Notes: generated by a model from the sequence alone, not told the origin. A DNA stretch of 64,000 nt from Terriglobia bacterium (GCA_963741105.1 CAVUGT010000014.1:7952-71951); one strand, 5' to 3'. Positions 29,286-56,969 are shown, counted from the stretch's first letter. Translations and numbers: made by a program.

Positions 29286-30044
29286 TTACGAAGAGACTGG
29301 CTTTTTCACACAAAGGAAGCCGGCAAAGTTGAACCACTGGAAAAACGTTTCGACGATTTCAAAACCGTTGCGCCGGAACAGGTCAAGATTCTCCTGCAGT
29401 TGGTACGGGACCAGGACGTTCTCCAGTGCCTCTCGCTTGCGCGCGATCTCAGTATCCGAATACCCCTGCTTGCGCTTGAAGTCATAATAGAAATCGATGA
29501 AAAAGCGGTTCACGTGACCGTTGTTGGTGAGGATTTTCTCGGTCACGATCAGCGCACCTTCACTGGCCAGCGAATCGTAGATGTGCCGGATCAGGGCATC
29601 TCTGCCCAGAGGCCGGATGAACTGCAGCGTCCAGCACATGGTGACGATGCTGGCATTCTCCAGAGGCAGTTCTGAGAGCGCTCCGTTGAGCTCGCCCGGG
29701 CGGACCTCGATTCTCTGCTCGAAATGGTTCTCGGCAATCTTCTTCCGTGCCCGCTCCAGCATGGGAAGGGAATTGTCGTAGCCGGCGAAGCGTGCCGCCG
29801 CGGGAAGTTTCCGGCACATATCCACCAGCATGGTCGCGGTTGAGCAGCCCAGGTCGTACACCATCGTTCCCGGAATATAGAAGCGCTTGCCGATGTCGGT
29901 GACCATGTTCAGCTGTTCCGAGTAGAACGGGACACTGCGTTCCAGCATGTCGTCGAACACCTCGGCGACTTCCTTGTTGAACTCAAAATCCCGCGCCGGC
30001 TTGTTCCCGGCGAGAAAGACTTTGTCCTTTTTCTTTTTCTTCAT
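29286..30044 (-). CDS. CmoA-like class I SAM-dependent methyltransferase (carboxy-SAM synthase family)
   Basis: From the ATG at 30044: FEFNKEVAEVFDDMLERSVPFYSEQ..., closely mirroring the E. coli CmoA N-terminal signature (F.ERVAEVFPDMIQRSVPGY). DLGCSTA SAM motif. 252 aa. Confidence 0.75.
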   Translation of the reverse strand: MKKKKKDKVFLAGNKPARDFEFNKEVAEVFDDMLERSVPFYSEQLNMVTDIGKRFYIPGTMVYDLGCSTATMLVDMCRKLPAAARFAGYDNSLPMLERARKKIAENHFEQRIEVRPGELNGALSELPLENASIVTMCWTLQFIRPLGRDALIRHIYDSLASEGALIVTEKILTNNGHVNRFFIDFYYDFKRKQGYSDTEIARKREALENVLVPYQLQENLDLFRRNGFEIVETFFQWFNFAGFLCVKKPVSS

Positions 30045-30064
30045 GTGCTTCACCCCCACAGCAA

Positions 30065-30946
30065 CTAGGCCGTCCGCCGCCGAAACAAAAATCCGCGTCC
30101 TTCCTGCTTCTCCGGTGCGCCACGTACCGCCCACCGTTCCAGGTACACAAACTCCCTGACCAACTCTAGTCCCGCTTCTTCGGCACAGGTCACGACCTCC
30201 TGACGATTCAGGAACCAGCTCAGGCACTGTGTGTAGTAGCCCGGCCGGTAAGGTCTTTGCTCCACCACAAACGAGGGTGAACGGCTCACCACTTGTAACC
30301 GGGCAAGATACAGAAACTCACCGGTAGCAGCCGCCAGCTGGCAAAGCACAGCCCGCCAGTCTTCGAAGTAGTGCAGCGCGCTGCTGCTGATCACCAGGTC
30401 AAATCGTTTTCCGGCCAACTCCGTTGCGTCATCGTGGAAGTGCACCTCAGGTTGCAGCTTTCTTCCCGCTTCGCATAACGATGGCACGTCATAGCAGTGG
30501 TATTCAATCTCAACTTCAGGCAGCAGGGTCTTGCTGTAGAGGTAGTAGTGGCCTGCTCCGCTGCCCCAGTCCAGCACGGAGAGGTTGTCTTTCTTCCTGG
30601 CCGCGAGTGCTAACACGTACCCGTAGGACATCATTGCGTTGTGATAACCCACTTCGTCACGGGTCACACTCCACGGGAAATGGGAGACACCCAACGGACC
30701 GGGTCCTTCAAGGTTACGCACCAGCGTGGGCCAATGCCGTGCAACCGCATCGGCAACATCGGGATCAGTCCAGCCCTTCATCTTCGGGTGCTGTGCTCGC
30801 CAGCCTTCGGGCACATAGACCCACTCCGAGAGCAGGTAATTGATTTTTGTCACCAGCAACGCAGGAAGGTAAGGCGCGGCGCGGATGAAGAATTTTCCTG
30901 CCGTTCGAGCTGCAAAGCTCGCACGCCAGCTACCGGGATTTCTCAT
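30065..30946 (-). CDS. Class I SAM-dependent methyltransferase (resembles the LIC12133-type family seen in glycan loci)
   Basis: VLDWGSGAGHYY SAM-binding motif and DLVISSSALHYFEDW. ATG at 30946 overlaps the stop of the upstream gene (ATGA). The family name is from memory. Confidence 0.7.
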   Translation of the reverse strand: MRNPGSWRASFAARTAGKFFIRAAPYLPALLVTKINYLLSEWVYVPEGWRAQHPKMKGWTDPDVADAVARHWPTLVRNLEGPGPLGVSHFPWSVTRDEVGYHNAMMSYGYVLALAARKKDNLSVLDWGSGAGHYYLYSKTLLPEVEIEYHCYDVPSLCEAGRKLQPEVHFHDDATELAGKRFDLVISSSALHYFEDWRAVLCQLAAATGEFLYLARLQVVSRSPSFVVEQRPYRPGYYTQCLSWFLNRQEVVTCAEEAGLELVREFVYLERWAVRGAPEKQEGRGFLFRRRTA

Positions 30947-32208
30947 GAGGGGTTCGGCACGGGATTCGGAAGGCGGAATTGCACCACACTGTTGGGTCGG
31001 ACCGTAACCAGCCATTCGTTGCCGTCCCTGCGATAGTACTGTCCATCCCAGCGCGCTGTGGGTCCCGCCGGACTTTCAGAAAGCTCGTCGCCGTTGACCG
31101 TTACCTGCATCTTCGCACTGCTGCCGAATCTGAGAGTGATGCTTCCATTGTAGACTTGGCGATCTAGCCGGTTGAACACTACAAAGCGCGCCCCGGTGCC
31201 TGCCGTCTTCAGCGCCTCAACCTGCGTCTGCCCGGACAAAGTGCGGTATGCATACAGCGGTCCCATTGGTACATACCAGATGTTCTCCCGGCCGCCGATG
31301 TGGGCCAGATGGCGTTCATAGAAACTTTCCGGGCCGTAGTCGAGCATCTGGGGATGTGAAAGGAAGCTGTAGATCCCGCCGCTGGCAAATACTTCGTCGA
31401 ACTTGGCATTCAACAAGGCGACGTCCGTACGCCCGGAAATCGTGACCTCGCCCTTTCCCGGAACCGTTTTCGAATAACCCTTCTGCACCACCTGGGTATA
31501 GCGTGCGGCGTAAGGATTCGAGTCGTAAGTCTGCAGGTCGGGAACGGCGTGATGGTCCAGCAATTCATTGGGATAGCCTCGCGCCGCTAAATATCCAGCC
31601 CGCGCGATCTTTTGCTGAATAAAGTCCCGGCCGGCACAGTTCCCACACGGGTAGGCCCAACTCCAGACGTAGGGCTGACTGGTGTTCTTCAGAATGTCAT
31701 CTCGCGAGCCCGCGATCTCGTCCCAGGTAAGTGCGCGGAAGCAGTAGAAAGGCGTTTCCGGGATACGGCAGGGATGTCGTCGGGAGTGCGATCCAATTTC
31801 ATGCCCGTTGGCGATTGCCTCGCGTAGACGAGGCCACAGCTTAGGCATGATCGACCGGTATCCGGTGGTGACAAAAGCTGTAGCTTTGATTCCGTGGCGG
31901 TCCATCACATCCAGACAGGGCGGCATTAACTCGTGGGAATCATCCACGGTATGGCTCACTACCGCCTTCGCGCCATTCAGATACTGGGTCTTGCCCAGAA
32001 ACTCAACCGAACCCGCTGGGCCGCCGAATTCCTTGGCACTGACTCCAAGCCGGCCCAGGGGGTCACCGGCCACGTCACCGATGGGCGAAGGTTCTGCCTG
32101 TAGCCCGGTGAAGTCCTTCCAGGAAAGGTGGCTGTTGCGGGCGGAGTGTGCAAGCGCGACCAGTTTCAATACGTTGCCAGACCGGTAGGAGTCGGCCTCT
32201 CCAAGCAC
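30943..32208 (-). CDS. Polysaccharide deacetylase (CE4 / NodB homology) with C-terminal extra domain
   Basis: NodB motif 1 SHTVDD and motif 2 HEIGSHSRRH. Start uncertain. Confidence 0.7.
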   Translation of the reverse strand: MLGEADSYRSGNVLKLVALAHSARNSHLSWKDFTGLQAEPSPIGDVAGDPLGRLGVSAKEFGGPAGSVEFLGKTQYLNGAKAVVSHTVDDSHELMPPCLDVMDRHGIKATAFVTTGYRSIMPKLWPRLREAIANGHEIGSHSRRHPCRIPETPFYCFRALTWDEIAGSRDDILKNTSQPYVWSWAYPCGNCAGRDFIQQKIARAGYLAARGYPNELLDHHAVPDLQTYDSNPYAARYTQVVQKGYSKTVPGKGEVTISGRTDVALLNAKFDEVFASGGIYSFLSHPQMLDYGPESFYERHLAHIGGRENIWYVPMGPLYAYRTLSGQTQVEALKTAGTGARFVVFNRLDRQVYNGSITLRFGSSAKMQVTVNGDELSESPAGPTARWDGQYYRRDGNEWLVTVRPNSVVQFRLPNPVPNPS

Positions 32209-32297
32209 GGAGGATTCTAGCAGACTCGCTCAAGACCGCCTTGGACGCGGGATTTAGTCTGTACCTTTGGTCCCGGCGCGCATATATTAGGCTTGCC

Positions 32298-33470
32298 ATG
32301 CGTATCACAGATGCTTCCGGCGGCTGCTGGCCGACTCCTCTTCAGGAACTGCTGCTTAAGGCAGCCCTGCTGAAGACGGATGACGCTCTGCTGGCCTGGA
32401 AGGAATGGTACGGCCAGGACGGCCTGGAGCGCATGGACAACGGTTCCTACCGCCTGCTTCCCCTGGCTTATCGCAATCTGGAGCGCCTCGGCTATCGGGA
32501 CCCGGTCCTGATGAAGCTCAAGGGAGTAAACCGCCGCGCCTGGTGCGAAAACCACTTGGTGTTCCGGCGTATGGCCCCGGTGCTGGCCGAGTTCCACAAG
32601 GCTGGTATCCCGACCATGCTGCTCAAGGGGGCAGCCCTGACCCTGCTGCACTACCGCGATTTCGGTTTGCGGCCCATGCAGGACCTCGATGTACTGGTTC
32701 CGGATGAGCAAGCGCTGGACGCGGTCGCTCTGCTCCAGGCCCAAGGCTGGACACGCAACACCTTGCCGGCGGTTGCCCTGGGGAAGTTCTTCCTTTCGTT
32801 CCGCCACTCCGCCGACTTTACCCGCCAGCCGCAGGAGCGTATCGACCTGCACTGGCACGTCCTTCTTCAGGCCTGCTACAGCGGTGCCGACCGGACTTTC
32901 TGGGACGCTTCCGTCCCGGTGGAGTTTGAAGGGCAGCCGACTCGCGCCCTCTGCCCCACCGATCAGTTGCTGCATGCTTGCGTTCACGGCGTGGTCTGGA
33001 ATTGGGTTCCGCCCTTGCGCTGGGTAGCGGACGCCTTCTGCATTCTCGAATCCTCAACGATTGACTGGCTCCGCCTGCTCGATATCGCCGTCCAGTTCAG
33101 GGTTGTTCCCGCGTTGCGCGATGCCTTGACCTATATGGTCAAGTCAGTCGACGCGCCGATTCCCGTGGAAGTGCTGCAGAAATTGCAATCCCTGCCGGTC
33201 ACCCCGGCGGAGCAGCACGAGTATCAGTACTACATGAAGCAACTGGACTCGCCCGGAGTCAGCCAGACCGTGCGTGCGCTATATCCCCAATATCAGCGCA
33301 CCGTGAAAGGGAAGAGTCTGGTCAGTCGAGTGGCGGCCATCCCGCTCTTCCTCCAGCACTATTGGAACCTCGAAGGACGGCGCGGGACGATCTCAAGAGC
33401 GTTCAATTATGGAGTCAAACGGATGCGACTGCTCTGGTCAGGGCGACGCCTGCAGGCTCGAATGCTCTAG
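32298..33470 (+). CDS. Nucleotidyltransferase family protein (Pfam NTP_transf_5-type)
   Basis: MLLKGAALTLLHYRDFGLRPMQDLDVLV...IDLHWHVL matches the remembered signature of the uncharacterised nucleotidyltransferase family. ATG at 32298 inside ORF 32148..33470. Confidence 0.8.
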   Translation: MRITDASGGCWPTPLQELLLKAALLKTDDALLAWKEWYGQDGLERMDNGSYRLLPLAYRNLERLGYRDPVLMKLKGVNRRAWCENHLVFRRMAPVLAEFHKAGIPTMLLKGAALTLLHYRDFGLRPMQDLDVLVPDEQALDAVALLQAQGWTRNTLPAVALGKFFLSFRHSADFTRQPQERIDLHWHVLLQACYSGADRTFWDASVPVEFEGQPTRALCPTDQLLHACVHGVVWNWVPPLRWVADAFCILESSTIDWLRLLDIAVQFRVVPALRDALTYMVKSVDAPIPVEVLQKLQSLPVTPAEQHEYQYYMKQLDSPGVSQTVRALYPQYQRTVKGKSLVSRVAAIPLFLQHYWNLEGRRGTISRAFNYGVKRMRLLWSGRRLQARML

Positions 33471-34153
33471 GTTTCTGTTTGGTTCTTGGCTTTGCGACGC
33501 CGTTCCATGGCCATCCTCATGATCCGGGGGTATTCGCTCCGCGCGTCGCGTTGGCGTATCCCCATGTTGGTCTCGTGGATTCGCCGCCTGGCCACCACAT
33601 CCGGAAGCATGACTGTCTTCAAGGGGAGTTCGGTTGCCCGAATATACCAATCAATAAAATCGCCGGTCTTCCACTGCGGGTCGAAGAGTCCAACCCGAAA
33701 CAGCGCGCTTCGCCTGACCAGCACTGTAATCTTCAGATAACCCTCGAAGATTCCCAGCGACACAGGGGCAGTATTCGGACCCGTCTCCCGAAACTGCTCG
33801 ACGTTTCCCATCACCATGTCCAACTCCGGATTACGGGTGAAGGCGTCAAGTTCCAGCTTGAGTTTTCCTTCTGTCCACAAGTCGTCGGAATCGAGGAATG
33901 CGATGAATTCACCCTTGGCCTTCGAGAGTCCATGGTTAAGGGCCGTGGCCACTCCGGCGTTTTCCTGGAAGTAATATTCCACCTGCGGAAAACTGCGGGC
34001 CACAGTCGCACTGCCGTCGGTGGACCCGTCATCCACCACGATGATCTGCATCGGCTCGTAGTTCTGCGCCAGGATGCTCTCGATGGCAGCGCCCAGATAT
34101 TTTTCGCAATTGAACAACGGAATGACCGTGCTGATCAGTGGAGCTTCCGTCAT
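33467..34153 (-). CDS. Glycosyltransferase family 2
   Basis: VIPLFNCEKYL, VVDDGSTDGS and FLDSDD motifs. 228 aa. Confidence 0.85.
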   Translation of the reverse strand: MTEAPLISTVIPLFNCEKYLGAAIESILAQNYEPMQIIVVDDGSTDGSATVARSFPQVEYYFQENAGVATALNHGLSKAKGEFIAFLDSDDLWTEGKLKLELDAFTRNPELDMVMGNVEQFRETGPNTAPVSLGIFEGYLKITVLVRRSALFRVGLFDPQWKTGDFIDWYIRATELPLKTVMLPDVVARRRIHETNMGIRQRDARSEYPRIMRMAMERRRKAKNQTET

Positions 34154-34180
34154 AAGTTGGCCTGCTTTAGATCGACAGCA

Positions 34181-35476
34181 TCATGAACGCAATAACCGAA
34201 GGCATTCCAGCAAGGAATGAACTTCGTGTGATGGCTCCTTCCACGGCGTGGCTTTTGCCGACCTCCATCGCCGCGGCCGCGAATCTTTTCCCACCCACAG
34301 CCATCCGCCCCGCCTCGCGTCAATCATGTGTTCCTTGATGTAAGACCACAACTGGTGGAAGCTTTGCCGGTAGTTTCGTTCGTCGTCCGGATACAGCAGC
34401 GCCATCCTCAGCAGTGCTCTCATACCTTCGGCCTGGGGCCACCAGAACTTCGTGTCGATAAAAACAACAATGTCTTCCAGGTGGGTGGGGCCGAAAGTGG
34501 AACCACCGTAGAAAAACCCTCCTCGCGAGTTGTCCCAACCATATTGCAAAACCGTGTCCACCACGGATTTGACGACATCGCGTGTCTTCGTATCCGACTC
34601 CAGGCACGGCAACCGGGACGCCTTGGCCAGAATATTGGAAGTATTGATTCCGTATGAATATCGGGCAATATCGGGCACGGGGGTCCAGTTGGGCAGAAAA
34701 TACATGTGCACCGCCCCGGGCGGCACAACCATGATGTCCCGCACTATGTGGAGCATCTCTAACAATCTCACCTTTAGCTGCTCGTCCGGTGAAACCCGGT
34801 ACAAATCGACCATCGTCTCCAGCATGTCGCCATTTGTGTTCGCGTCTTTGAACCCCAATGGGGTTCCGATGCAATCACGCACCAGGTTCGGGATGGGGCA
34901 CTGCTCGCGAGAAAGAATCGGCATCCCCTCTCGGGTGTAGAGAGCGTAGTAACCGCCATACTCGTAGTCGTGGCCCGCTTTTTCCAACCATCGAAGGGCT
35001 TCTTGCGCCAGCGTGAGGGCTTGCGGATCCGAGGTAAGTTCGTAATACGCGATATACCCCGCTATGCCGTAACTGGCGCCGTGTCCATGTTTGGTGCCTG
35101 CTTCAAGAGGACTGCCCGAACGGTCCAGCAAGCGATACCAGCCCCCGAACTCACGGTCCCACATGACATCGCGGAGGTACTGAAAACCGTGGGTGGCGTA
35201 TTGACGATAACTCTCGAAGCGAGGATGAGCCGCCGCCCGCGAGATCAGCCGCAACATGCGGGTCTGATACTCCAGCATCTTGAGCTGAGGTCCGCGCGGC
35301 CTCCAGCGATAGTCGAAGTCGGAAAGAAAGCCGCCATGTTCCTGATCTACACAGCGGGGAAACCAGGTTTCAAGGATCTTGGCCAGCGCGTCCTCAAGCT
35401 CGCCGGCCAGGATATCTTTGGCAGCCATATCCAGAGACTGCCCGTTCCACGCCGGTTTTGCCTCATCTTTATTCAT
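34181..35476 (-). CDS. AGE-family epimerase/isomerase (N-acylglucosamine 2-epimerase-like)
   Basis: 431 aa, alpha/alpha-barrel-like repeats with D.EHGGF, Y.Q.R..., W.QAE and GGW motifs typical of the AGE family. Confidence 0.8.
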   Translation of the reverse strand: MNKDEAKPAWNGQSLDMAAKDILAGELEDALAKILETWFPRCVDQEHGGFLSDFDYRWRPRGPQLKMLEYQTRMLRLISRAAAHPRFESYRQYATHGFQYLRDVMWDREFGGWYRLLDRSGSPLEAGTKHGHGASYGIAGYIAYYELTSDPQALTLAQEALRWLEKAGHDYEYGGYYALYTREGMPILSREQCPIPNLVRDCIGTPLGFKDANTNGDMLETMVDLYRVSPDEQLKVRLLEMLHIVRDIMVVPPGAVHMYFLPNWTPVPDIARYSYGINTSNILAKASRLPCLESDTKTRDVVKSVVDTVLQYGWDNSRGGFFYGGSTFGPTHLEDIVVFIDTKFWWPQAEGMRALLRMALLYPDDERNYRQSFHQLWSYIKEHMIDARRGGWLWVGKDSRPRRWRSAKATPWKEPSHEVHSLLECLRLLRS

Positions 35477-35612
35477 TCAACCACCCCGCAGAGTATAGGA
35501 CGACATGCTGGATCAGCGTAATATTTCTCGTTCGACACGTAGGCCCGACCAGTTGCGTCATTAAGATCTTCGCGGAGAGCCTGGCCTACAGCTGAGAGAA
35601 GCCACAAGAGTC

Positions 35613-37526
35613 ATGGAAGTTCAGCAGCGCACTTACGAACAGTGGATCAGCCTCTCAGCGACGGTTGTGCTGCTCGCAACCACGATCATCTCGTTGATTT
35701 GGTATGGCCGCATTACTAGCGCAAAGCTGGCCTTCTCCCACTCGTTCACGATTGTTGTCGCCGCGGAACTTGCGGTTTCCATCGTTCTTCTGCGTCATCG
35801 CGCACTCAACGTTTTGAGGGCTTTCTTCACTTCTGTAACTCATCCCTTGAACCTTGCCCTGTTCCGGGTCGTTGTTTTCTGGGGGATATTCAGCGAAGTG
35901 CGTCTCGCAACCAGAACGATAGTCTCGTTCACCAGGATTCCAACTGGACTGCAAGTCGCCCCCTGGGGGATGGGAACATTCCTGCACTATCTGCCGATCA
36001 ACCAACGATGGGCCACAACGGCCGCGATGCTGGTGCTGATATTCAGCGCAACGGGATTGATCGGATTACTTTCCAGAACGTCAGCGCTGTTGTGCTTTGT
36101 CTTTGGTCTCTATGCTCTCGGCATCCCTCAGTTTTACGGCAAGGTCAATCATTACAACCACCTGATGTGGTTCGCTGCGATCCTGGCCGTCAGCCCCTGT
36201 GGAGACTTTCTCGCCCTTGACGCAATATTCGCAGCGCGAAGACGGGCGAACCGCGGGATTACCGCACCTCCTGAACCGTCCCGGGAATATGCGTTGCCGC
36301 TTCGATTCGTGATGCTGCTGGTCGGAATCATCTACTTTTTTCCCGGTTGTTGGAAACTGTGGGATGGCGGCCTTGAATGGGTCTTCAGTGACAATTTACA
36401 GAAGCAGCTCTATCTGTTTTGGACCTGGTCTTTCAATAGTACGTGGCTGCCTTCGTTCAGGATCGACCAATATCCCCTCTTGTGCAGGCTGGGGGCAGCG
36501 GGCGCGCTTCTTTTTGAATTGCTTTTCATCTTCGGAATATTTTCCCGCCGGTTCCGTCAGCTTGCAGCCGTCGCTGGGATCGCCTTCCACAGGATGACAC
36601 TGGCGTTCATGCGCATCGGCTTTTTCAGCCTGCAATGGTCATACGTTGCGCTCTTCGACTGGAGTGCGGTTTTCCGTAGGATCGGACGCTGGCTCTACCG
36701 CGATGACATGTTCTTCCTTTACGACGGCGATTGCGCGAAATGCCGCCGGACCGTCGCATCGCTGAGAGTTTGCGACATTTTCGAGCGCGTCACCTATCTC
36801 AATATTCGCGACCGGGTCGCGGTCCGCGATGCCGGCGCGAACTGTGTGAACGCTGACCTGATGAAAGCACACGTTTACGCAGCGGTCCAAAAAACTGGCT
36901 GGGCCGGATTTCAGGCATATGGAGCGTTGGCTCGACGCATACCGCTTGTTTGGCCTTTCATTCCTATTCTGTATCCCATCCTGTATTCCTTGCCCTCAGG
37001 TATTGGACACGGCATTCATCGACAGACATCGGACACACGGGCTCACGGAGTGGCTGGCAGGGGGGCGGTCCTGACGAAGTCGGAAGGTATACACGCCCGA
37101 TTATCCGGCATCGTCGCGGTGGGCACCGCCTTAGTACTAATCTGCTCGTTTTGCGGCGCTCGCAAGATTGTTTCCGGCTGGCCTTTCGCCTGCTACCCAA
37201 CTTTTTCGTTGCCCGCCGCGGACAAACTGGAAACGCTGGGGATGGTCGCGACCACCTCTTCGGGAGAAACTTTCCCGGTGGAGATCAAAGCCATAAGCTA
37301 TGAGCGTTTGTATTGGTTGTTGTCAGGCATTCTCGCGACCAGAGATCCATTGCTCCAGCAGAATCGTCTTCGAGAACTTTGGACTTTCGCTGTCCGGAGC
37401 GATCCGACGTTCCAAAAAGCCATCTCCGTCAAGTTTTTGAGGCAGACCCTGTGGACGAATCCTGATTTATGGAAGAGTAACCCTGTCGACCAGAATCTGT
37501 TGTTCGAGCTCGATTCCGCGCCCTAG
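35613..37526 (+). CDS. Fusion protein: HTTM (vitamin-K-carboxylase/SdpB-like) membrane domain + DCC-family thiol-disulfide oxidoreductase domain + C-terminal domain
   Basis: N-terminal multi-pass region with HPLNLALFRVVVFWGIF (HTTM-type start). Central FFLYDGDCAKCRRTVASLRVCD...YLNIRD (DCC/DUF393 CxxC). Then one more TM and a ~130-aa tail. Confidence 0.8.
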   Translation: MEVQQRTYEQWISLSATVVLLATTIISLIWYGRITSAKLAFSHSFTIVVAAELAVSIVLLRHRALNVLRAFFTSVTHPLNLALFRVVVFWGIFSEVRLATRTIVSFTRIPTGLQVAPWGMGTFLHYLPINQRWATTAAMLVLIFSATGLIGLLSRTSALLCFVFGLYALGIPQFYGKVNHYNHLMWFAAILAVSPCGDFLALDAIFAARRRANRGITAPPEPSREYALPLRFVMLLVGIIYFFPGCWKLWDGGLEWVFSDNLQKQLYLFWTWSFNSTWLPSFRIDQYPLLCRLGAAGALLFELLFIFGIFSRRFRQLAAVAGIAFHRMTLAFMRIGFFSLQWSYVALFDWSAVFRRIGRWLYRDDMFFLYDGDCAKCRRTVASLRVCDIFERVTYLNIRDRVAVRDAGANCVNADLMKAHVYAAVQKTGWAGFQAYGALARRIPLVWPFIPILYPILYSLPSGIGHGIHRQTSDTRAHGVAGRGAVLTKSEGIHARLSGIVAVGTALVLICSFCGARKIVSGWPFACYPTFSLPAADKLETLGMVATTSSGETFPVEIKAISYERLYWLLSGILATRDPLLQQNRLRELWTFAVRSDPTFQKAISVKFLRQTLWTNPDLWKSNPVDQNLLFELDSAP

Positions 37527-37630
37527 TTGGGTATGCAGGGTTGCAATCCCTTGCACACCTTCCGGTCGTGCCAAAACCCTTGTGCAGCGCGCCTTGCGCG
37601 GCCTTATTCCCGGTGATAAACTCCGTCGTC

Positions 37631-38071
37631 ATGGCCCTTTATCAGGTAAATCGGCCCGATGTCGTAATGGAATCTTTCGGCGGGGAGACCGTCCTCGTCC
37701 AGATGAAGAGCGGCAATTACTACAGCCTGCGGGGGTCCGCTCCGCTGATCTGGGACTTGATTGACCAGGGCTCCTCGGTCGAAGATGCCGGCGACTTTTT
37801 GCTCGCCAGCCACGTCGGGAACGAAGAAGAAGTCAGGAGCTCGGTGCGAACCCTGGTGGACGAATTGGTAGCCGAGAGCTTGATCGTGCCGGTGGCGAGC
37901 GCTCCCTCCGCGGCCTCCAGCAAGTCACCATCTCCCATGGAACCAGGCGCGCCCTTCGAGCTTCCAGTGCTCGAGCGCTACACGGACATGCAGGAGTTGT
38001 TGTTTCTCGATCCCATCCATGATGTGGACGAATCGGGCTGGCCCCACCGCAAGGTTGAGGGTGAAAACTAG
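37631..38071 (+). CDS. PqqD-family peptide-binding (RRE-type) protein
   Basis: From the ATG at 37631: ...VVMESFGGETVLVQMKSGNYYSLRGSAPLIWDLIDQGSSVEDAGDFL...VRTLVDELVAESLIV is the PqqD winged-helix pattern. A ~50-aa C-terminal tail follows. Confidence 0.8.
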   Translation: MALYQVNRPDVVMESFGGETVLVQMKSGNYYSLRGSAPLIWDLIDQGSSVEDAGDFLLASHVGNEEEVRSSVRTLVDELVAESLIVPVASAPSAASSKSPSPMEPGAPFELPVLERYTDMQELLFLDPIHDVDESGWPHRKVEGEN

Positions 38072-38073
38072 GA

Positions 38074-39156
38074 ATGGACTTTACAGTGTCGGAGGAACGG
38101 CAGCCTGATTCTGCCGGCGGTTCTCCCCCCGACCCGGCTGGATTTTTCGATGCCGTCCTTAATGTCTTTCAGCAAGCCTCCGCCGGACGACTCATCGAGC
38201 ATCACTACCGGATCGGTGGAAAAGCCGTGCTCATGCGCTTTGCCGGCGCCGCCATGGCCGACCGCTTCTCTCCCGCCATCGGACATCTTTCCGAGACATT
38301 TCACGTCGAGCCTGACCTGACCGTACATTTCTTTGATGACCGCTCAACTGGCGCGCGCATGCCCCCCGCACCATGGCCGCCCGAGGCGCCTGGACCGCGC
38401 GGCGTCGTTCAGGGCTACAACGATGATCGCTTTTTTACGATCTTCGAATCCGACATCCTGCAGATGTTCGATGCCAGGCAGAACGCGGGCATTTACTGGA
38501 TACGAGACTACGAGTGGCTCCCCTACTGGGAAAATAGCTTTCCCATGCGATCCATCCTGCACTGGCGCTTCCGCCATGAACCGCTGCAAGCCATTCATGC
38601 CGGAGCGGTTGGGAATGCTTCCGGCGGCGTTCTGATTGCCGGCAAGAGTGGTTCGGGGAAATCCACGACTACGCTGGCGTGTCTGTCCTCAGGCCTGCTG
38701 TATGCGGGGGACGATTACGTACTCGCGGATATCGCCGGCGAACCCTACGTTCACAGTCTGTATTCAACCGCCAAACTTGTTCCCGACAATTGCGACCGCT
38801 TCCCCCAACTCAGACCCCTGGTTTCGAATCCCGACAAACTGGACGAGGAGAAAGCTCTCATTTATCTGCGAGAGCACTTTCCCGCCAGCATTGTCCGCGG
38901 CCTGCCTCTCCGCGCCATTCTGTTGCCCCGGGTGACCGGACTGCCCGACACGAAACTGGTCAAGGCAGGCGCCATGGATGCCTTTCGCGCCATCGCTCCG
39001 ACAACTCTTCTGCATCTGGCCCGTGCCACCGACGAAGCCTCCCGCAAGATCAGCGCTCTTTGCCGTTCCCTGCCGGTCTACTGGATCGATGCCGGTACGG
39101 ACCTGCCCCAGATTCCCCGAGTCATCACTGAGTTCCTGGAACGCGGTGCGCGATGA
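38074..39156 (+). CDS. HprK-related serine kinase-like P-loop protein
   Basis: HAGAVGNASGGVLIAGKSGSGKSTTTLACLSSGLLYAGDDYVL matches the HPr kinase C-terminal-domain signature. Starts 2 nt after the PqqD stop. Confidence 0.8.
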   Translation: MDFTVSEERQPDSAGGSPPDPAGFFDAVLNVFQQASAGRLIEHHYRIGGKAVLMRFAGAAMADRFSPAIGHLSETFHVEPDLTVHFFDDRSTGARMPPAPWPPEAPGPRGVVQGYNDDRFFTIFESDILQMFDARQNAGIYWIRDYEWLPYWENSFPMRSILHWRFRHEPLQAIHAGAVGNASGGVLIAGKSGSGKSTTTLACLSSGLLYAGDDYVLADIAGEPYVHSLYSTAKLVPDNCDRFPQLRPLVSNPDKLDEEKALIYLREHFPASIVRGLPLRAILLPRVTGLPDTKLVKAGAMDAFRAIAPTTLLHLARATDEASRKISALCRSLPVYWIDAGTDLPQIPRVITEFLERGAR

Positions 39157-39941
39157 CGGGCGTCGAAAATCTGGTAAGCGTAATTGTCCCTGCCTACAAC
39201 GCGGCATCGTTCCTTCCAAAGGCAATAGCGAGTATCGATCGTCAGGGCTATCATCCTCTTGAGATCATCGTGGTGGACGACGGTTCGACCGACAATACAG
39301 CCGAGGTCGTGCGCAGTCTGCCCAGCGTGACCCACTATTTTCATCAGGAAAATAAGGGACCGGCGGCGGCGCGCAATCTCGCTCTGAAGCAGGCCGGGGG
39401 CGAGTTCATCGCGTTCCTGGACTCCGACGATGAGTGGCCCGCCGGCAAACTCGAACTGCAACTCGGACGCTTCCAGACCGAACCTCGCCTCGAAGTGGTG
39501 CTGGGCCGGATTCAGTACATTTCGTTGCCTGGAGCTCTGGAGTTGGATCTCCCGTTTGAGACTGAGGACCGCATTCTTACCCACGTCCATCTCGGCAGTG
39601 GTGTCTATCGTAAGTCGGTTTTTGACCGCGTCGGTCTTTTTGAAGAGAGCCTGCGCTTCAGTGAAGACGTAGACTGGTTCATGCGTGCGCGCGAAGAAGA
39701 CATCTCTATGGTCATCCTGCGAAATGTCACGCTGCTCTACCAGCTTCACGCCGGCAATATGACCCGCGAGATGACCTCTAAGAGCTGGAACATGGGAATT
39801 GTGATCAAACGTTCCCTGGAGCGTCGCCGCAGCCGCGGCACCGGCCGCCCGATCCAGTTGAAGCCTTGGTCTTTTTACGATGAAACCGGACGGACCCGGG
39901 CTTCTTTCCCAGACAATGCCCCGGGCAAGCCTGCGATATGA
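39153..39941 (+). CDS. Glycosyltransferase family 2
   Basis: VIVPAYNAASFL, VVDDGSTDNT and FLDSDDEW motifs. ATGA overlaps with both neighbours. Confidence 0.85.
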   Translation: MTGVENLVSVIVPAYNAASFLPKAIASIDRQGYHPLEIIVVDDGSTDNTAEVVRSLPSVTHYFHQENKGPAAARNLALKQAGGEFIAFLDSDDEWPAGKLELQLGRFQTEPRLEVVLGRIQYISLPGALELDLPFETEDRILTHVHLGSGVYRKSVFDRVGLFEESLRFSEDVDWFMRAREEDISMVILRNVTLLYQLHAGNMTREMTSKSWNMGIVIKRSLERRRSRGTGRPIQLKPWSFYDETGRTRASFPDNAPGKPAI

Positions 39942-41629
39942 GGACCCAGGACAACGCGAAATCGCAGAAACGCGCTGCCTGGCTCTACTACGCCGGTTGC
40001 TACCAGGGGCAGAAGGACTCGCTGTTCGTCACGGTCCTGTTGTGCGCCATGCAGTTTGTTTTCGTGCTACCCACAATCTATCTGGTACGGCACGTCTTCG
40101 ATGTCGTCATTCCGCGCGGCGATTTGCGTGGCGTCTTTTGGGACGGCATCATGATCGCGGCTAGCCAGACGATGTATACCGTTTTCATCCTGTGGGTCCG
40201 CAAAATAACTCTCCGGACCACCAAGGTTGCCGTCGCCCGAATCCGCTTCGATCTGCTCTCCCGCCTGTATGTGCTCTCCCGCACTTTCTACAGCGATGGC
40301 GATCGCGGCGGCCTGCACACCGTCATTGTGCAGGACACTGAACGCGTCGATGTGATGAGCAACGCCATCGTCTCGCGCGTGCTGCCGTCACTCCTGGCCT
40401 CAATTGGGTTCTCTTGTGTGCTGATCTGGCTGAACTGGAAAATGTTCCTGGTGACCATGCTCGTCGCGCCCTTGCTGTTTGGGGTCAACCGCATACTGGG
40501 GAAAAAGTTGAAGGCAGCGTCGCGGACATTCCGCCGCACCTTTGAGACCTTCAGCAAGGGAGTGCTCTTCGTCACCGAGTCGATCGATCTCACCCGCAGC
40601 CAGACCGCGGAAAAGTTCGAACTCGAACGCCAGTGGAAACAGATCGAAGATCTTCGCCAGAACAGCGGACGCTTTGCCTGGCTCGATACCGCTTACAGCC
40701 AGGTACAGGGCAACCTTGCAATGGCTGCGGGAGTGCTGGTGCTCATGGCGGGTGGCGTGGCCGTTGCCCACGGTTCCATGACGACTGGCGCTCTCCTCTC
40801 GTTCTTCGTGACCTTGCGAATCCTGAGCCAGTACGGAGCGCAGGTCATCGAAATCGCCCCGACCGTTGTACTCGGAAACCAGTCCCTCCTGGCTCTCCAC
40901 CAGTTATTGACTTCGGAAGCAGTCGAGCCCTATCACGGAACCGCCGGAATTGATTTTCAGGGAGAGATCAAACTCGAGGATGTTTCCTTCCGCTACGGCA
41001 AACCGGCTGTGTTGAACGGCGTCAACCTGATCATTCAGCCTCGGCGCACGGTCGCTCTCATCGGTCCCAACGGTTGTGGCAAGAGCACCATTCTGCATCT
41101 GATTCTCGGCTTTTACCGGCCGAACGCCGGCGCCCTGTACTGCGATGGACGGCCCTACGACGAGGTCGATCTCTCCTCCGTGCGCAGATCGATTGGATTC
41201 GTCGCCCAGAATCCAACCCTATTCAGCGGATCCATTCGCGAGAATATTTCCTATGGAATGCCGGAAGCCACGCTGGAACAGATTCGACAAGCCTCCAGCC
41301 TCGCTCTCGCGGACGATTTCATCATCAAGCTTCCCGATGGCTACGACACCACCATCGGCGATGACGGGGTCCGCCTGTCCGGCGGTCAACGCCAGCGCAT
41401 TGCCATCGCACGCGCTCTATTGCGGCAGCCGAAACTCCTGGTGCTCGACGAGCCGACCAACCACCTGGACATCAAAGCCGTGACTCGCCTGATGGAGAAC
41501 CTGCGCCAACTGGAGAACCAATTAGCCTTGTTGCTGGTCAGCCACGACCGGGAAGTAGTTCGTCACGCCGACGATGTCTTCGAGATCGACAACGGCATCG
41601 CCCTGCGCATGACTACCATGACCGTATAA
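39938..41629 (+). CDS. ABC exporter, fused permease/ATPase (type I exporter)
   Basis: Six-TM N-terminal half. GPNGCGKST Walker A, LSGGQRQRIAIARAL signature and LLVLDEPTNHLD Walker B. Confidence 0.9.
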   Translation: MRTQDNAKSQKRAAWLYYAGCYQGQKDSLFVTVLLCAMQFVFVLPTIYLVRHVFDVVIPRGDLRGVFWDGIMIAASQTMYTVFILWVRKITLRTTKVAVARIRFDLLSRLYVLSRTFYSDGDRGGLHTVIVQDTERVDVMSNAIVSRVLPSLLASIGFSCVLIWLNWKMFLVTMLVAPLLFGVNRILGKKLKAASRTFRRTFETFSKGVLFVTESIDLTRSQTAEKFELERQWKQIEDLRQNSGRFAWLDTAYSQVQGNLAMAAGVLVLMAGGVAVAHGSMTTGALLSFFVTLRILSQYGAQVIEIAPTVVLGNQSLLALHQLLTSEAVEPYHGTAGIDFQGEIKLEDVSFRYGKPAVLNGVNLIIQPRRTVALIGPNGCGKSTILHLILGFYRPNAGALYCDGRPYDEVDLSSVRRSIGFVAQNPTLFSGSIRENISYGMPEATLEQIRQASSLALADDFIIKLPDGYDTTIGDDGVRLSGGQRQRIAIARALLRQPKLLVLDEPTNHLDIKAVTRLMENLRQLENQLALLLVSHDREVVRHADDVFEIDNGIALRMTTMTV

Positions 41630-41727
41630 CTGAGAACCGAGAACCAGGAACTAAAAACTAGAAATCAAAAACAAGAAATTCGTAATCAGCAATCAAGAAG
41701 AAGAACCAGAAAGTAAGAAGCAGAACG
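41630..41727 (+). repeat. CTGAGAAC-type purine-rich intergenic motif, extended copy 4
   Basis: CTGAGAACCGAGAACCAGGAACTAAAAACTAGAAATCAAAAACAAGAAATTCGTAATCAGCAATCAAGAAGAAGAACCAGAAAGTAAGAAGCAGAAC, starting immediately after the ABC exporter stop. Confidence 0.6.
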
Positions 41728-41747
41728 TATATCTTACAAACCAGGCG

Positions 41748-43292
41748 GTGCACCAGTTGAATCGGGCTCCCAGCCAAACCATCCTTTCGCCTCTTCGCAT
41801 AGCGCTGATCCTGGGAGTCACAACCATCGTGGCCGCGGTTCTGCGCCTGCATCAGCTCTCCGTCAAAAGCTTTTGGATTGATGAAGGGGCAAGCGTCAGC
41901 TTCGCCACCATGCCCTGGCGTCCGTTCCTCAAGACGCTCTGGAACTACCAGGGCAATATGGCGCTCTACTATTTTCTCCTGAGGGCTTGGATCCATCTGG
42001 GAGACAGCGAATTCGTGGTGCGCAGCCTCTCCGTGCTCTTCGCGGTCCTGACCATTCCGGCGATATATTTCCTGGGCAACCGTCTGTTCGATCGCTCCAC
42101 CGGACTGATTGCCGCGGCGTTGTTGGCCGTACACAGCTTTCACATCCACTGGTCGCAGGAGGCCCGCGGGTACAGCTTGCTGATCCTGCTCCTGGTGCTG
42201 GCTGCGTATTTTCTGGTTTGTGCGCTGGAATCGAAGGCCAGCCGCTCTTTGTGGATCGCATTCGCCGTCACTGCTGCGCTGAGCTTCTACTCTCACATTT
42301 TTGCTGTCTTCGTGCTGGCTGCCTTCGCATTCTCCATTGCGTATCCCAAGCCCTACCGCATCGAAAAGCAAACCATCGTCTGGGTCGCGATTCTTTTCGA
42401 ACACCTGATCGCTCCCATGGCTCTGTTCGTCGTAGTCCATCACTCCGGCAGCCAGATCGGCTGGCTCCCGTGACCGTCGCTGCCCGCGGTCAACGAATTC
42501 TTCCTGCTTCTCACCAGCCAGGGTGGCATTGTGCTGGCGGTGATTTATCTGTCCCTGTGTGGATTGGCATTCATGCTGGCATCCGAAGCCAGCCAGCCGG
42601 AGAAGATCCAAGCAGAGCAAGAAAAGTGGGCTCTCCGCCTTCTCTTCCTGTGGCTGGTGCTGCCGCCCGTGCTGACTCTGGCCGTGACACCCGTCAAGCT
42701 GCTTTTCTACGGTCGCTACATGGTCATGTGTGTGCCCGCTCTGGTCCTGCTCGCGGCGCGCGGGCTCACTCTTCTCTACCACGCGCCGATGGCAAGACGA
42801 GGGGCCGCGGTTGTGGCCTTCGTGCTGGTGATGGCACTGTCCGGTTGGGGCACGCACAAGTACTTCACGAGATTTCCCGAGGAGAGCACAGATTGGCGCG
42901 CTGCCGTGAACTACATCCACGAACATCAGCAACCCGGCGATGGCGTGTTCATCTACACCTCGCACGCTCTTAGTTACGACTACTACGCGCATCACCCCGC
43001 AGCCGGACAAAGAGACGCGACCGCGCCCGATGTCTTATACCCGCCCGATCCCCGGCGTCCCGTGAGCCACGACGAAATCAACGGCGATATCGCAGGACGT
43101 GGACGAGTATGGCTCCTGCTGCACGACGAAAGAGGAAGACCAACCGAACTGGCGGAGATTCAATCCACAATAGGCGAACAATTCCAGGCGGGAGAGGAGC
43201 ACGTCTTCCCGGGAGAGATACCCATTACGGTCGTGCTCTACAGCCATCCCAGGCCATGCGGTAACCGCTGGAATTCGTATGACTCGGCCTGA
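41748..43292 (+). pseudogene. Glycosyltransferase family 39 (ArnT/PMT-like) interrupted by one in-frame TGA
   Basis: ORFs 41748..42473 and 42531..43292 are in the same frame (783 nt apart). The only stop is the TGA at 42471-42473 in ...SQIGWLP*PSLPAVNEFF.... The N-terminal part has the SFWIDEGASV motif and multiple TMs. Confidence 0.75.
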
Positions 43293-43418: not shown

Positions 43419-43508
43419 GGAGAGTTGGCCGAGTGGTTGATGGCACCGGTCTTGAAAACCGGCATACCCGGAAGGGTATCGGGGGTTCGAATCCCTCACT
43501 CTCCGCCA
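43419..43508 (+). tRNA. tRNA-Ser (anticodon UGA)
   Basis: GGAGAGT acceptor stem pairing with ACTCTCC. Anticodon stem CCGGT/ACCGG with loop CTTGAAA. Long variable arm, GGTTCGAATCC T-loop and encoded CCA. Confidence 0.93.
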
Positions 43509-48120: not shown

Positions 48121-48358
48121 TTCAAGGCGTCATTAATACGAACATATACTACGAATTCGTAGTATTAGTACGAAACAATACTCGCCACACCGCCGCCTGT
48201 CAACTATGAACAGGCGTGAGATAGAAGACGCCGACTCCCAGTCTCCCCGGAGCCCGATCTTACGAATTACTTCTTTAGCTTTCGTGTTGTTTCGATTCTG
48301 ATGTACTATCTCCGCTATCGCGCGCTGTTTGCCAAACTTCCCCTTGCCGGAGAACCAA

Positions 48359-49933
48359 ATGGATCGCCGCAGCTTCCTGAAATCCGCCACCGCAACAGGA
48401 CTCGCAGTCGGCCTGCTCAAGACCAGCGCCAACGCCGCCATCCCCGAACACAACTGGGACAAATACGATTGGGGGCCAGGGCCCGCGGTTCCCGACCGGC
48501 TGTACCAAGGCCCATTCCCTCAGTACGGCCCCGGCGCGGTGGTTCCTGACAGCGATGTTTCGATGATTACTTCTCCGTCCCGCGAAATCGTCGCCAACTA
48601 CGGTATGGGCCTCGTCGCTTATCTTTCCGACGACACCGGTCCGCTCGTTATCCCTGGTGAGAGCCAGGAAAAAACTCTGGAGGATCTGGTCAGACTGCCC
48701 TTCGTGCAGAAGGTGTACCTGCGTCCCAACTGGCGAGAGGTTCAGAAGCAGCCCGGCCGGCTCGACTTCCCCGAGTGGTGGAAGATTGCGTTCGATCTGT
48801 CTCGCCGCTACAACAAGCCCATCGGTTTCCGCGTCCAGTTGGAGAATCCCGACGTTCCCGAGCCTGGGATGCCGGACTTTCTCCTCAACAAGGTCCCTCT
48901 CGTAAAGCTAAAAGGCGAGTGGGAAGGCAATCCCGCGGAGACGCGCTATAAGAAGGATAACCGTGTGCCGCGCTACGATCACCCGGCGTACCAGGCTGCT
49001 TTCCGCGAATTGAATGAGCTGCTGGCCGCCGAACTCAACGGTCATCCGCAGATTGAGTTCATGGATACGATGATGTACGGCTTCTGGGGCGAAGGCCATA
49101 CCTGGCCCTACGAGGGCAATCCTTTCCCCAGCCAACTGGTCGCTGAACAGACCTGGATGTCCATGTTCGAGACCCAACTCCAGCACTGGACCAAAGTCCC
49201 GCTGGCCACGAACACACAGCCCGACTTCAGCAACGTAGGCAACGCCGACATGCTCGATCGCACCATGCGCACCGGCAACTGGCTGCGCACCGACACCATC
49301 TTCATCGAGAACACTCAAATCGAGGCCTTGAGCTACCGTCCACCTTGGGCTGCGGCGATCTGTGAAGTTGGTTTCACCACCGGCGACGAGAACCAACTCC
49401 AGATCGACGAAGACGGGCTTACCTACAACGAGCAGATCATTTCTCACGCCGCCGATGTCGGCGTCAACTATCTATCGGTTTGGAGCTGGCACAACCAATC
49501 GGCCCGCAGCATTACGAGCTACTACGAAAAGTTTCCGGGACCCATCGACGAGATGGCCCGCAAGATCGGCTATCGCATCCGCCCATCGTTTATCTGGACT
49601 TTCACCCGCGATGGAGCGAACGGCCTCGTGCTCGGATTGGCAAATGATGGCATCACGCCCGTCCCAGGAGTGCTGCGTCTCACCGTTTTCAGCGAAGACA
49701 ACAAGATCAACGTATCAGGCTGTGTCGATCCTGGATATCCGAAGCCGACCGGCGTACATCAAGTCATGCTGATCCTGCCGGCTGGCGCCCAATGGGAAGG
49801 GCTGCGACTGAAAGCCGAGTTAGAAGTGGAGGGTGTTCGTCATCCGATTCGCTGGGCATGCCGCCAGAAGGTGAATGAAGATGGCTCGTTGACGCTGCGC
49901 CACAATTACAACCCAAAGCACCCATTGGTGTAG
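48359..49933 (+). CDS. Tat-signal secreted protein of unknown function (possibly glycoside-hydrolase-like TIM barrel)
   Basis: MDRRSFLKSATATGLAVGLLKTSANA twin-arginine signal from the ATG at 48359. No catalytic motif confidently recognised. Confidence 0.65.
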   Translation: MDRRSFLKSATATGLAVGLLKTSANAAIPEHNWDKYDWGPGPAVPDRLYQGPFPQYGPGAVVPDSDVSMITSPSREIVANYGMGLVAYLSDDTGPLVIPGESQEKTLEDLVRLPFVQKVYLRPNWREVQKQPGRLDFPEWWKIAFDLSRRYNKPIGFRVQLENPDVPEPGMPDFLLNKVPLVKLKGEWEGNPAETRYKKDNRVPRYDHPAYQAAFRELNELLAAELNGHPQIEFMDTMMYGFWGEGHTWPYEGNPFPSQLVAEQTWMSMFETQLQHWTKVPLATNTQPDFSNVGNADMLDRTMRTGNWLRTDTIFIENTQIEALSYRPPWAAAICEVGFTTGDENQLQIDEDGLTYNEQIISHAADVGVNYLSVWSWHNQSARSITSYYEKFPGPIDEMARKIGYRIRPSFIWTFTRDGANGLVLGLANDGITPVPGVLRLTVFSEDNKINVSGCVDPGYPKPTGVHQVMLILPAGAQWEGLRLKAELEVEGVRHPIRWACRQKVNEDGSLTLRHNYNPKHPLV

Positions 49934-56820: not shown

Positions 56821-56969
56821 CTTTTAGGACATGGGCCGCACATTAGAGATAGCTTTTGTTCCGCGCGGAAGCCGGGAACCCTGAATTGGCGGCCATTCTA
56901 CCACCGTCTGACTCAGCCAGACTCCCCGACTTTCCCGCAATCGGGCCATTCAACCGTAGGAGCAGTGCC

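Follow-up and report, generated by a model that had tools for sequence, protein, structure and literature searches.

A six-gene PqqD, kinase and glycosyltransferase cassette whose recognition domain carries its own leader-like peptide

A 14-kb block (29286-43292) in a 64,000-nucleotide stretch of Terriglobia bacterium DNA (GCA_963741105.1, CAVUGT010000014.1:7952-71951; this whole stretch is called the window below) had been described in an initial annotation, made from the sequence alone, as one accessory cluster of thirteen genes, combining a PqqD-type recognition element (RRE) of the kind that serves peptides made by ribosomes and modified after translation (RiPPs), an HprK-like kinase and an NTP_transf_5 nucleotidyltransferase with glycan and redox enzymes. 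We find that the conserved unit is a cassette of six genes, encoding the PqqD protein, the kinase, two soluble family-2 glycosyltransferases (GT2b and GT2a), the NTP_transf_5 protein and, less often, an ABC exporter, and that the rest of the 14 kb consists of lineage-specific neighbours. What is new in this cassette is that the recognition domain carries a leader-like peptide of its own and is often fused to the kinase.

The conserved unit and its distribution

A scan with the kinase profile, taking one genome per species, yielded 80 cassette loci anchored on the kinase, from at least 14 phyla: Acidobacteriota, Chloroflexota, Cyanobacteriota, Planctomycetota, Chlamydiota, Nitrospirota, Bacteroidota, Bacillota, Gemmatimonadota, Desulfobacterota, Actinomycetota, Patescibacteria and Verrucomicrobiota, together with Alpha-, Beta- and Gammaproteobacteria. 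Co-occurrence was then counted by tblastn with the window proteins against the 43 loci that have complete flanks. PqqD accompanied the kinase in 41 of them, at least one GT2 in all 43, at least two GT2s in 36 and NTP_transf_5 likewise in 36; a cassette-type ABC exporter was found in 7, an AGE-family epimerase in 4 and a PMT_2 glycosyltransferase in 1, and the HTTM-DCC fusion, the CE4 deacetylase, both methyltransferases and CmoA in none. Because PqqD, GT2 and NTP_transf_5 recur at these frequencies over at least 14 phyla, the trio of PqqD, kinase and NTP_transf_5 adjoins far more often than chance would allow, and its portrayal in the initial annotation as a real, lasso-less unit tied to glycosyltransferases holds. 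Since six genes are kept together and the others vary from locus to locus, however, the real unit is these six genes rather than the 14-kb block, which corrects the boundaries that RiPP-mining tools would draw. An exported product, also proposed at the outset, is not a general feature, given how few loci have the exporter.

The canonical gene order is PqqD, kinase, GT2b, GT2a, (GT2a), (ABC), NTP_transf_5, with brackets for genes that are not always present. Neighbourhoods in Chloroflexota, Alphaproteobacteria and Acidimicrobiia contain PqqD, the kinase and two GT2s, often with NTP_transf_5 as well. Among Terriglobales, the four closest loci (L086, L087, L089 and L090; kinase identity 69-86%) share one arrangement, in which NTP_transf_5 is on the plus strand and GT2a on the minus, followed by a plus-strand run of PqqD, kinase, GT2b and ABC. 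Orthologues of GT2b (36-55% identity) lie about +1.0 kb from the kinase start in most loci, and orthologues of the in-cassette exporter (38-46% identity) in a minority. When all neighbouring ORFs (open reading frames) of at least 30 aa were clustered over 82 loci, no further widely shared family emerged, and no conserved peptidase or cyclase was found in the 80 related loci. Sporadic neighbours in other loci were sulfotransferases, GT4, SDR, O-methyltransferase, AGE, ABC-2, a gluconolactonase-like protein and Amj. One cassette (L096, 5896-17248) lies on the 44-kb mobilizable plasmid pCRI9333.04 of Crinalium epipsammum PCC 9333, accompanied by an FkbM methyltransferase, a gluconolactonase-like protein, a TPR protein, a second nucleotidyltransferase and an ABC exporter, with a group II intron upstream; its genes have only generic names in RefSeq.

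Within the window, domains were assigned by Pfam and NCBIfam hidden Markov model searches, with scores read against curated cut-offs (Table 1). The searches bore out the initial PqqD, NTP_transf_5, GT2, AGE, CE4, methyltransferase, ABC and PMT_2 calls; the HTTM call proved marginal, and the HprK-like call stayed below every curated cut-off. The position of the block between a histidine kinase gene and tRNA-Ser(tga) was confirmed, as was the placement of its genes, but the count came to 12, the PMT_2 gene being read as two ORFs owing to an in-frame TGA. By strand the block falls into four units: CE4, TIGR04325 methyltransferase and CmoA, read in that order on the minus strand; NTP_transf_5 on the plus strand; AGE and then GT2a on the minus strand; and a plus-strand run of HTTM-DCC, PqqD, kinase, GT2b, ABC and PMT_2, in which the PqqD-kinase-GT2b-ABC junctions comprise one 2-bp gap and two 4-bp overlaps. 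Predicted promoters and terminators were no more numerous than in shuffled controls, and they mark no operon boundaries. The GC content of 29-43 kb (0.555-0.60) is the same as that of the flanks and gave no signal of horizontal transfer.

Table 1 Features of the block and its flanks (window coordinates; scores in bits, with the curated cut-off after "vs")
Feature	Coordinates	Strand	Evidence and remarks
Histidine kinase, HisKA_3/HATPase_c, 256 aa	28388-29158	-	Flanking gene
CE4 + TIGR04325 methyltransferase + CmoA unit	29286-32208	-	Lineage-specific neighbour
NTP_transf_5 nucleotidyltransferase-fold protein	32298-33470	+	PF14907 146.8; start codon by homology
GT2a, second conserved soluble GT2	33467-34153	-	Glycos_transf_2 114
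AGE/cellobiose-2-epimerase family	34181-35476	-	GlcNAc_2-epim 91.8; recurrent, optional
HTTM-DCC1 membrane fusion	35613-37526	+	HTTM 26.5 vs 27.7 (marginal); DCC1-like 29.3 vs 27.8
RRE-tail (PqqD) protein, 146 aa	37631-38071	+	RRE aa 1-88, linker aa 89-107, conserved tail aa 108-138
Leader-like motif PFELPVLERYT	37952-37984	+	Consensus P-[FY]-x-x-P-x-L-x-[RK]-[YF]-[T]
Nearly invariant 20-aa peptide DMQELLFLDPIHDVDESGWP	37985-38044	+	Candidate tethered core or functional motif
P-loop kinase, PEPCK/HprK superfamily, 360 aa	38074-39156	+	Start 2 bp after PqqD stop
GT2b, soluble family-2 glycosyltransferase	39153-39941	+	Glycos_transf_2 121; 4-bp overlap with kinase
ABC exporter, MsbA-like, fused transmembrane and nucleotide-binding domains, no peptidase domain	39938-41629	+	ABC_membrane + ABC_tran; 4-bp overlap with GT2b
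PMT_2 (GT-C) glycosyltransferase	41748-43292	+	PMT_2 57.7; optional accessory
tRNA-Ser(tga)	43419-43508		Flanking gene

The recognition domain, its tail and the kinase

The recognition domain is of the lasso-B1 type. It matches Pfam PqqD well above the cut-off (44.8 vs 23.4 bits); the best NCBIfam matches, lasso_PqqD_Bac and lasso_PqqD_Strm, stay below theirs (35.7 vs 80), and ScmD also appears at E <= 1. AlphaFold2 (AF2) models the domain with a predicted local distance difference test score (pLDDT) of 85-93, and the top Foldseek matches of this model are the B1 proteins TbiB1 (5v1v, TMt 0.90) and 6jx3, with target-normalised TM scores of 0.88-0.90.

Homologues of the window protein are about 140-160 aa long, against about 90 aa for a bare RRE. 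After the RRE comes a variable, low-complexity linker rich in Ala, Pro, Ser and Gly, and then a tail that is the best-conserved region of the whole protein, with the consensus P-[FY]-x-x-P-x-L-x-[RK]-[YF]-[T]-D-M-Q-[ED]-L-L-L-L-D-P-I-H-[ED]-V-D-E-x-G-W-P. Over 82 homologues, the columns of its leader-like start hold F67/Y9, P80, L67, R72/K8, Y70/F12 and T66, and this start matches the motif bound by RREs of two known systems, namely YxxPxL in the leaders of lasso peptides (PMC6784204) and [Y/W]xxPx[V/L] in linear polyphosphorylated peptide (LPP) clusters (PMC13381572). In the 20-mer that follows, D127, P128 and H130 are invariant in the 82 sequences and I129, G136, W137 and P138 are kept in at least 97%. 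Essentially every PqqD partner in the 80 loci has the tail motif, and a search with the 43-residue tail alone returned 2076 representative proteins at E <= 1e-3, nearly all of them about 150 aa long with the motif at the C-terminus. The few short ones resemble gene-calling fragments, one being a frameshift on a contig at 2.4x coverage, and stand-alone tail peptides were rejected on that ground. Separately, the PqqD-tail gene of one Terriglobales relative (L086, 9539-9998) is called as two ORFs of 71 and 95 aa, an apparent assembly frameshift; this relative is 78% identical.

Two independent AF2 models predict a beta-strand right after PxL, at aa 113-117 of the window protein with pLDDT ~82 and, in a fusion homologue, with 71-76. 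A leader behaves in this way when it adds a strand to the RRE sheet, and we infer from the secondary structure and pLDDT that the tail may dock in cis. In the complexes of TbiB1 (5v1v/5v1u) and 6jx3 the bound leader with its YxxPxL is a separate peptide, whereas here a linker of about 20 residues joins the motif to the RRE within one chain.

The search for a separate precursor ended in its rejection. No candidate was found among all ORFs of at least 15 aa in the intergenic gaps of the window, where a YxxPxL-type leader motif occurs a single time, inside the PqqD gene itself; nor was any small ORF shared around the cassette when ORFs of at least 30 aa from 82 loci were clustered. A free peptide with the same motif does exist in a different RiPP-like cluster on a metagenome contig (Ga0182024_10048367, 560-6708; locus L094). 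There, a tail-less RRE of 92 aa (560-838, minus strand) is preceded by a small ORF (856-1065, minus strand) whose C-terminal end, LIYKKPELRKYTQIDYVTAYGVD / YKKPELRKYTQIDYVTAYGVD, contains YxxPxLxKYT. Its divergent genes encode an NAD-epimerase, NTP_transf_5, two PhyH dioxygenases and a homologue of the window's HTTM-DCC (37% identical), and this is the only other site found where HTTM-DCC adjoins an RRE and NTP_transf_5. Because this peptide is free and has the same motif, and the background of the relaxed motif is low (9 non-tail matches in 1.57 Mb of six-frame translation), the sequence supports descent of the tail from a leader peptide.

The kinase has a Walker A motif (GKSGSGKST) and a GDDY motif, both invariant in alignment A2. 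It falls short of Hpr_kinase_C (20.5 vs 33.3), TIGR00679 (23.4 vs 240), HprK_rel_B (27.9 vs 200) and HprK_rel_A (TIGR04352; 17.4 vs 200), and a profile built on its family matches HprK/P structures around the P-loop with an E of about 1e-3. By Foldseek, an AF2 model (m358f49453932) of the fusion homologue P0453, rather than of the window kinase, matched ATP-dependent phosphoenolpyruvate carboxykinase (PEPCK) best, with E = 4e-9 and some 400 aligned columns, whereas the match to HprK/P had E = 1e-4. The kinase is therefore HprK-like at the level of superfamily and fold only, as a member of the PEPCK/HprK P-loop superfamily. Membership of the NCBIfam HPr-rel-A system, which the initial annotation had brought up, could not be upheld: that system, a PqqD-family protein paired with an HprK-related kinase, resembles the cassette in general idea only, its kinase model being the TIGR04352 just given and its PqqD model finding no match at E <= 1. 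The cassette is a different family. A total of 1085 kinase homologues were found, named at most 'serine kinase', and a literature search returned no published account of NTP_transf_5, 'HprK-related kinase' or PF27840, the last being a newer Pfam family to which some of the homologues belong.

Natural fusions join the two proteins. At least 120 proteins of 580-870 aa consist of RRE, tail, a second, degenerate RRE and kinase, and such single chains have one to three RRE repeats (three in L061, 8636-11023; further examples are L069, 8912-11014, and P0453, at L092 9001-10872). The complete genome of Synechococcus sp. CBW1004 has a fusion locus with AGE, two NTP_transf_5 genes, a GT2 and a GT4; the AF2 model of this fusion has an overall pLDDT of 88, and its conserved 20-mer is disordered (pLDDT <50).

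Candidate function, related systems and competing readings

The nearest described system is the LPP pathway of Bacillota (Popov et al., Nat Commun, May 2026; PMC13381572), whose clusters combine, with no lasso machinery, an RRE, a kinase, an NTP-transferase and an exporter. There the precursors LppA are encoded by one to three separate genes with the pattern YxxPxVLxHQxIxFETxxS, the RRE LppB presents the leader to an SpI-like peptidase, LppS, and the kinase LppK polyphosphorylates Ser3 of the core; the clusters lie inside capsule loci, and the family is reportedly confined to Bacillota (PMC13381572). The cassette resembles these clusters in encoding together a discrete RRE, a kinase similar to HprK, an NTP-transferase and also an exporter resembling MsbA (all coupled in the window, and matched here by description), in its RRE-binding motif of YxxPx[L/V] type and in its setting among glycan genes. 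It differs in that no counterpart of LppS is present; in that motif and peptide belong to the RRE's own chain, often together with the kinase, instead of forming a separate precursor with a phosphorylated Ser3; in that its tail shares only [FY]xxPxL and has no invariant Ser; in that two or three GT2s are obligatory, whereas GT2s are not core in LPP; and in that it spans at least 14 phyla. The remark in the initial annotation that no described pathway matches is thus half true: LPP has since been published, yet the cassette has no peptidase, no separate precursor and obligatory GT2s.

Lasso-peptide tailoring offers a second comparison, one that the initial annotation had already drawn and that the literature backs for PsmK/PsmN (PMC6993621, PMC9266682) and LppK/LppN (PMC13381572). 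PsmK polyphosphorylates the C-terminal Ser of pseudomycoidin, and PsmN, an 'uncharacterized NTP transferase', is needed to add one or two hexoses to the phosphate (PMC6993621, PMC9266682). The paeninodin and pseudomycoidin clusters (PadeK/PsmK, PsmN) share with the cassette an RRE, a kinase similar to HprK, an NTP-transferase-fold protein (again matched by description) and an ABC exporter; their macrolactam cyclase, B2 peptidase, separate precursor and C-terminal Ser acceptor are all missing here. By Pfam, no Asn-synthase-like (macrolactam cyclase C) protein was detected in the 12 genes of the cluster or in the window's remaining large ORFs, and no transglutaminase-like (B2) peptidase in the cluster or those same large ORFs, the small ORFs elsewhere in the window not all having been scanned; a signal-peptidase domain (SpI-like, SipW-type) was likewise absent from the cluster. 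The absence of lasso cyclase and leader peptidase reported initially is thereby confirmed. Of the marks of a lasso cluster only the B1 RRE is present; because the cyclase, the B2 peptidase and a separate precursor (with YxxPxL leader and Thr at -2) are all absent, the cassette is not a lasso cluster. Nor do we credit a lasso cluster decayed by loss of cyclase and peptidase, for all that its RRE is of lasso-B1 type and that kinase and NTP-transferase are known lasso tailoring enzymes. The cyclase-less architecture is found across at least 14 phyla and in over 2000 representative proteins, its catalytic motifs intact, a pattern that argues for selection and makes decay extremely improbable.

We tentatively favour a reading that we hold to be somewhat short of probable, in which the cassette would be an offshoot of the lasso/LPP phosphorylation and glycosylation tailoring module that does without cyclase and leader peptidase and modifies its tethered tail in cis. 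The leader-like motif would dock in cis on the RRE sheet and present the conserved peptide to the enzymes; the kinase would add phosphate to the tethered peptide or to the linker close by; NTP_transf_5, together with two or three GT2s, would, by analogy with PsmK/PsmN, build a short phospho-linked glycan; and the product would be exported in those lineages that carry the ABC gene. The CE4, methyltransferase, AGE and PMT_2 genes would be optional, lineage-specific genes for tailoring the glycan. Consistent with this are the intact catalytic motifs of the kinase, of NTP_transf_5, in whose sequence DLD can be read, and of the GT2s, in which DSDD is intact, as well as the sugar-modifying enzymes among the sporadic neighbours elsewhere (sulfotransferases, GT4, SDR, O-methyltransferase, AGE, YdjC). 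Precedent points the same way, in that HprK-like kinases phosphorylate peptides delivered by an RRE and the NTP-transferase is needed for hexose on phosphate (PMC6993621, PMC9266682, PMC13381572).

A number of observations weigh against modification of the tail in cis. No peptidase is conserved in related loci, and the tail is internal in the kinase fusions. The pLDDT of the 20-mer is below about 52 in the window protein and below 50 in a natural kinase fusion, with no placement on the kinase. No hydroxyl residue of the tail is invariant over 206 proteins: position 118 is T or S in 91% of them and N, D, E or A in the rest (~9%), and the two kinase-fused sequences examined have N there, as does the A4 consensus. 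Thr118 was downgraded as a phospho-acceptor on these grounds. Ser is missing from 31 of the 206 linkers, 108 of the 206 C-termini are without both Ser and Thr, and the conservation of the 'core' is far above that of typical RiPP cores. Moreover, LppK is strictly Ser-specific, and LppN was inactive in the sole LPP reconstitution (PMC13381572). With the tail lying inside the fusions and peptidases not conserved, release as a diffusible RiPP looks unlikely; the cassette could instead yield a modified protein or a glycoconjugate primed by a protein, or the tail could serve purely as an adaptor.

With the self-tethered tail, a peptide-primed glycoconjugate, offered initially as an alternative, gains in appeal. 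In its most specific form the RRE-tail protein would be a self-contained precursor or primer, with DMQELLLLDPIHEVDExGWP as the covalent acceptor of a phospho-glycan from the kinase, NTP_transf_5 and the GT2s, a proposal that we regard as doubtful. If true, such a protein-primed glycoconjugate, or a conserved RiPP of cofactor-like kind, would place precursor, RRE and sometimes kinase in one chain, a logic undescribed for any RRE system, and would do so in at least 14 phyla.

Alternatively, the tail could be a built-in pseudo-leader or adaptor that fills the RRE groove, with DPIH...GWP docking or regulating the kinase, GT2 and NTP_transf_5; the molecule modified would then lie elsewhere, as an unlinked peptide or protein, or as a non-peptide acceptor such as a sugar-phosphate or lipid-linked glycan. 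The extreme cross-phylum conservation seen in the 20-mer is what protein-protein interfaces typically show, and this explanation also suits a 20-mer without invariant Ser, Thr or Tyr, a tail internal in the kinase fusions, the absence of a peptidase, a kinase model nearer to the small-molecule kinase PEPCK than to HprK/P, and the many loci, most of those counted, that have no ABC exporter. Against it, AF2 gives the 20-mer a pLDDT below 50 and no confident docking even where it is covalently linked to the kinase, a permanently filled RRE groove acting as pure scaffold has no known precedent, and no alternative precursor or priming enzyme (e.g. a phosphoglycosyltransferase) is conserved nearby. 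On balance we consider an adaptor role unlikely, while taking it seriously.

That the block is an ordinary operon for exopolysaccharide or capsule, with its PqqD-like gene there by accident, is in our view highly improbable. The block does hold many glycan enzymes (GT2, CE4, AGE, PMT_2, methyltransferases), and LPP clusters themselves sit within capsule loci (PMC13381572). However, among the Pfam matches of the 12 genes there is no initiating phosphoglycosyltransferase, Wzx/Wzy, Wza/Wzc, Wzm/Wzt or processive synthase, ABC-2 or GT4 is only sporadic in other loci, and the PqqD-kinase pair is kept in 41 of 43 loci whatever glycan genes surround it. The cassette is not a conventional polysaccharide operon.

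To date, RRE-dependent phosphorylation and glycosylation of peptides is known from Bacillota, in lasso peptides and, since 2026, LPP. If our favoured reading of tailoring in cis is right, the cassette would carry such chemistry into at least 14 phyla and over 2000 representative proteins, as well as a cyanobacterial plasmid, and its self-tethered design offers a concrete substrate hypothesis for a very common family of 'hypothetical' operons. Culturable carriers are known, in which the product could be identified; they include Crinalium epipsammum PCC 9333, Synechococcus sp. CBW1004, Anabaena sp. UHCC 0187 and Aestuariivirga litoralis KCTC 52945.

Other genes of the cassette and the block

GT2b retrieved only generic GT2s from PDB and NCBIfam (chondroitin synthase, TuaG, EpsD, MftF), all below cut-off, and the ABC exporter stayed below cut-off with the MsbA_rel, TAP and HepA-like models. 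Against PDB sequences NTP_transf_5 gave a weak thioesterase match only, which was set aside as probably spurious. The core proteins had no match in the PADLOC defence libraries.

The HTTM-DCC fusion is a window-specific neighbour outside the conserved cassette. Its DCC1-like domain, with a DGDCAKC motif, passes the cut-off solely when the C-terminal half is scanned alone. According to the initial annotation the trio was wired to this protein, in keeping with a view of the whole 14-kb block, HTTM-DCC and PMT_2 being integral to it, as one pathway to an exported linear peptide that is phosphorylated and/or glycosylated and possibly disulfide-bonded. Such a pathway is very unlikely. It is true that HTTM-DCC and PqqD share a strand, the former 104 bp upstream and with no terminator predicted in the gap, that a homologue of HTTM-DCC adjoins an RRE, a candidate precursor and NTP_transf_5 in L094, that the window has an exporter, and that an intact PMT_2 follows the exporter in L089. 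But HTTM-DCC is missing from the four closest Terriglobales relatives as well as from all 43 distant loci, the PMT_2 of the window has a premature stop, and CmoA, the second methyltransferase and CE4 are not kept with the cassette. The candidate peptide, moreover, is without cysteine; the window's PqqD-tail protein has none, and only 1 of 206 tails has one. Neither the wiring to HTTM-DCC nor a disulfide-bonded product found support in these comparisons.

CmoA, the second methyltransferase, CE4, AGE and PMT_2 are likewise lineage-specific neighbours and not part of the core. AGE is present in L086, L087 and L092, as well as the 4 distant loci counted above, and is absent from L089 and L090. CmoA passes its equivalog cut-off (TIGR00740, 238.8 vs 193.3 bits), the second methyltransferase scores 81.6 vs 80 on TIGR04325, and CE4 scores 52.6 bits on Polysacc_deac_1. 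The three genes are joined by ATGA overlaps and are kept in L086 only, while L089 has a methyltransferase, YdjC and a glycosyltransferase in their stead. The unit probably serves sugar tailoring or is unrelated to the cassette. CmoB is not visible nearby, and carboxy-SAM might here have a use other than tRNA modification. Elsewhere in the window, two plus-strand ORFs of 534 aa (48329-49933) and 538 aa (56856-58472) match no Pfam family at E <= 1e-5.

Among the Terriglobales relatives PMT_2 is intact in L089 only, as a 505-aa orthologue. The in-frame TGA of the window gene (42471-42473) aligns with an Arg (WLPRPS) of that orthologue, and the two are 69% identical over their full length, the similarity continuing past the stop. 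The pattern points to either a recent CGA-to-TGA nonsense mutation or an error in sequencing.

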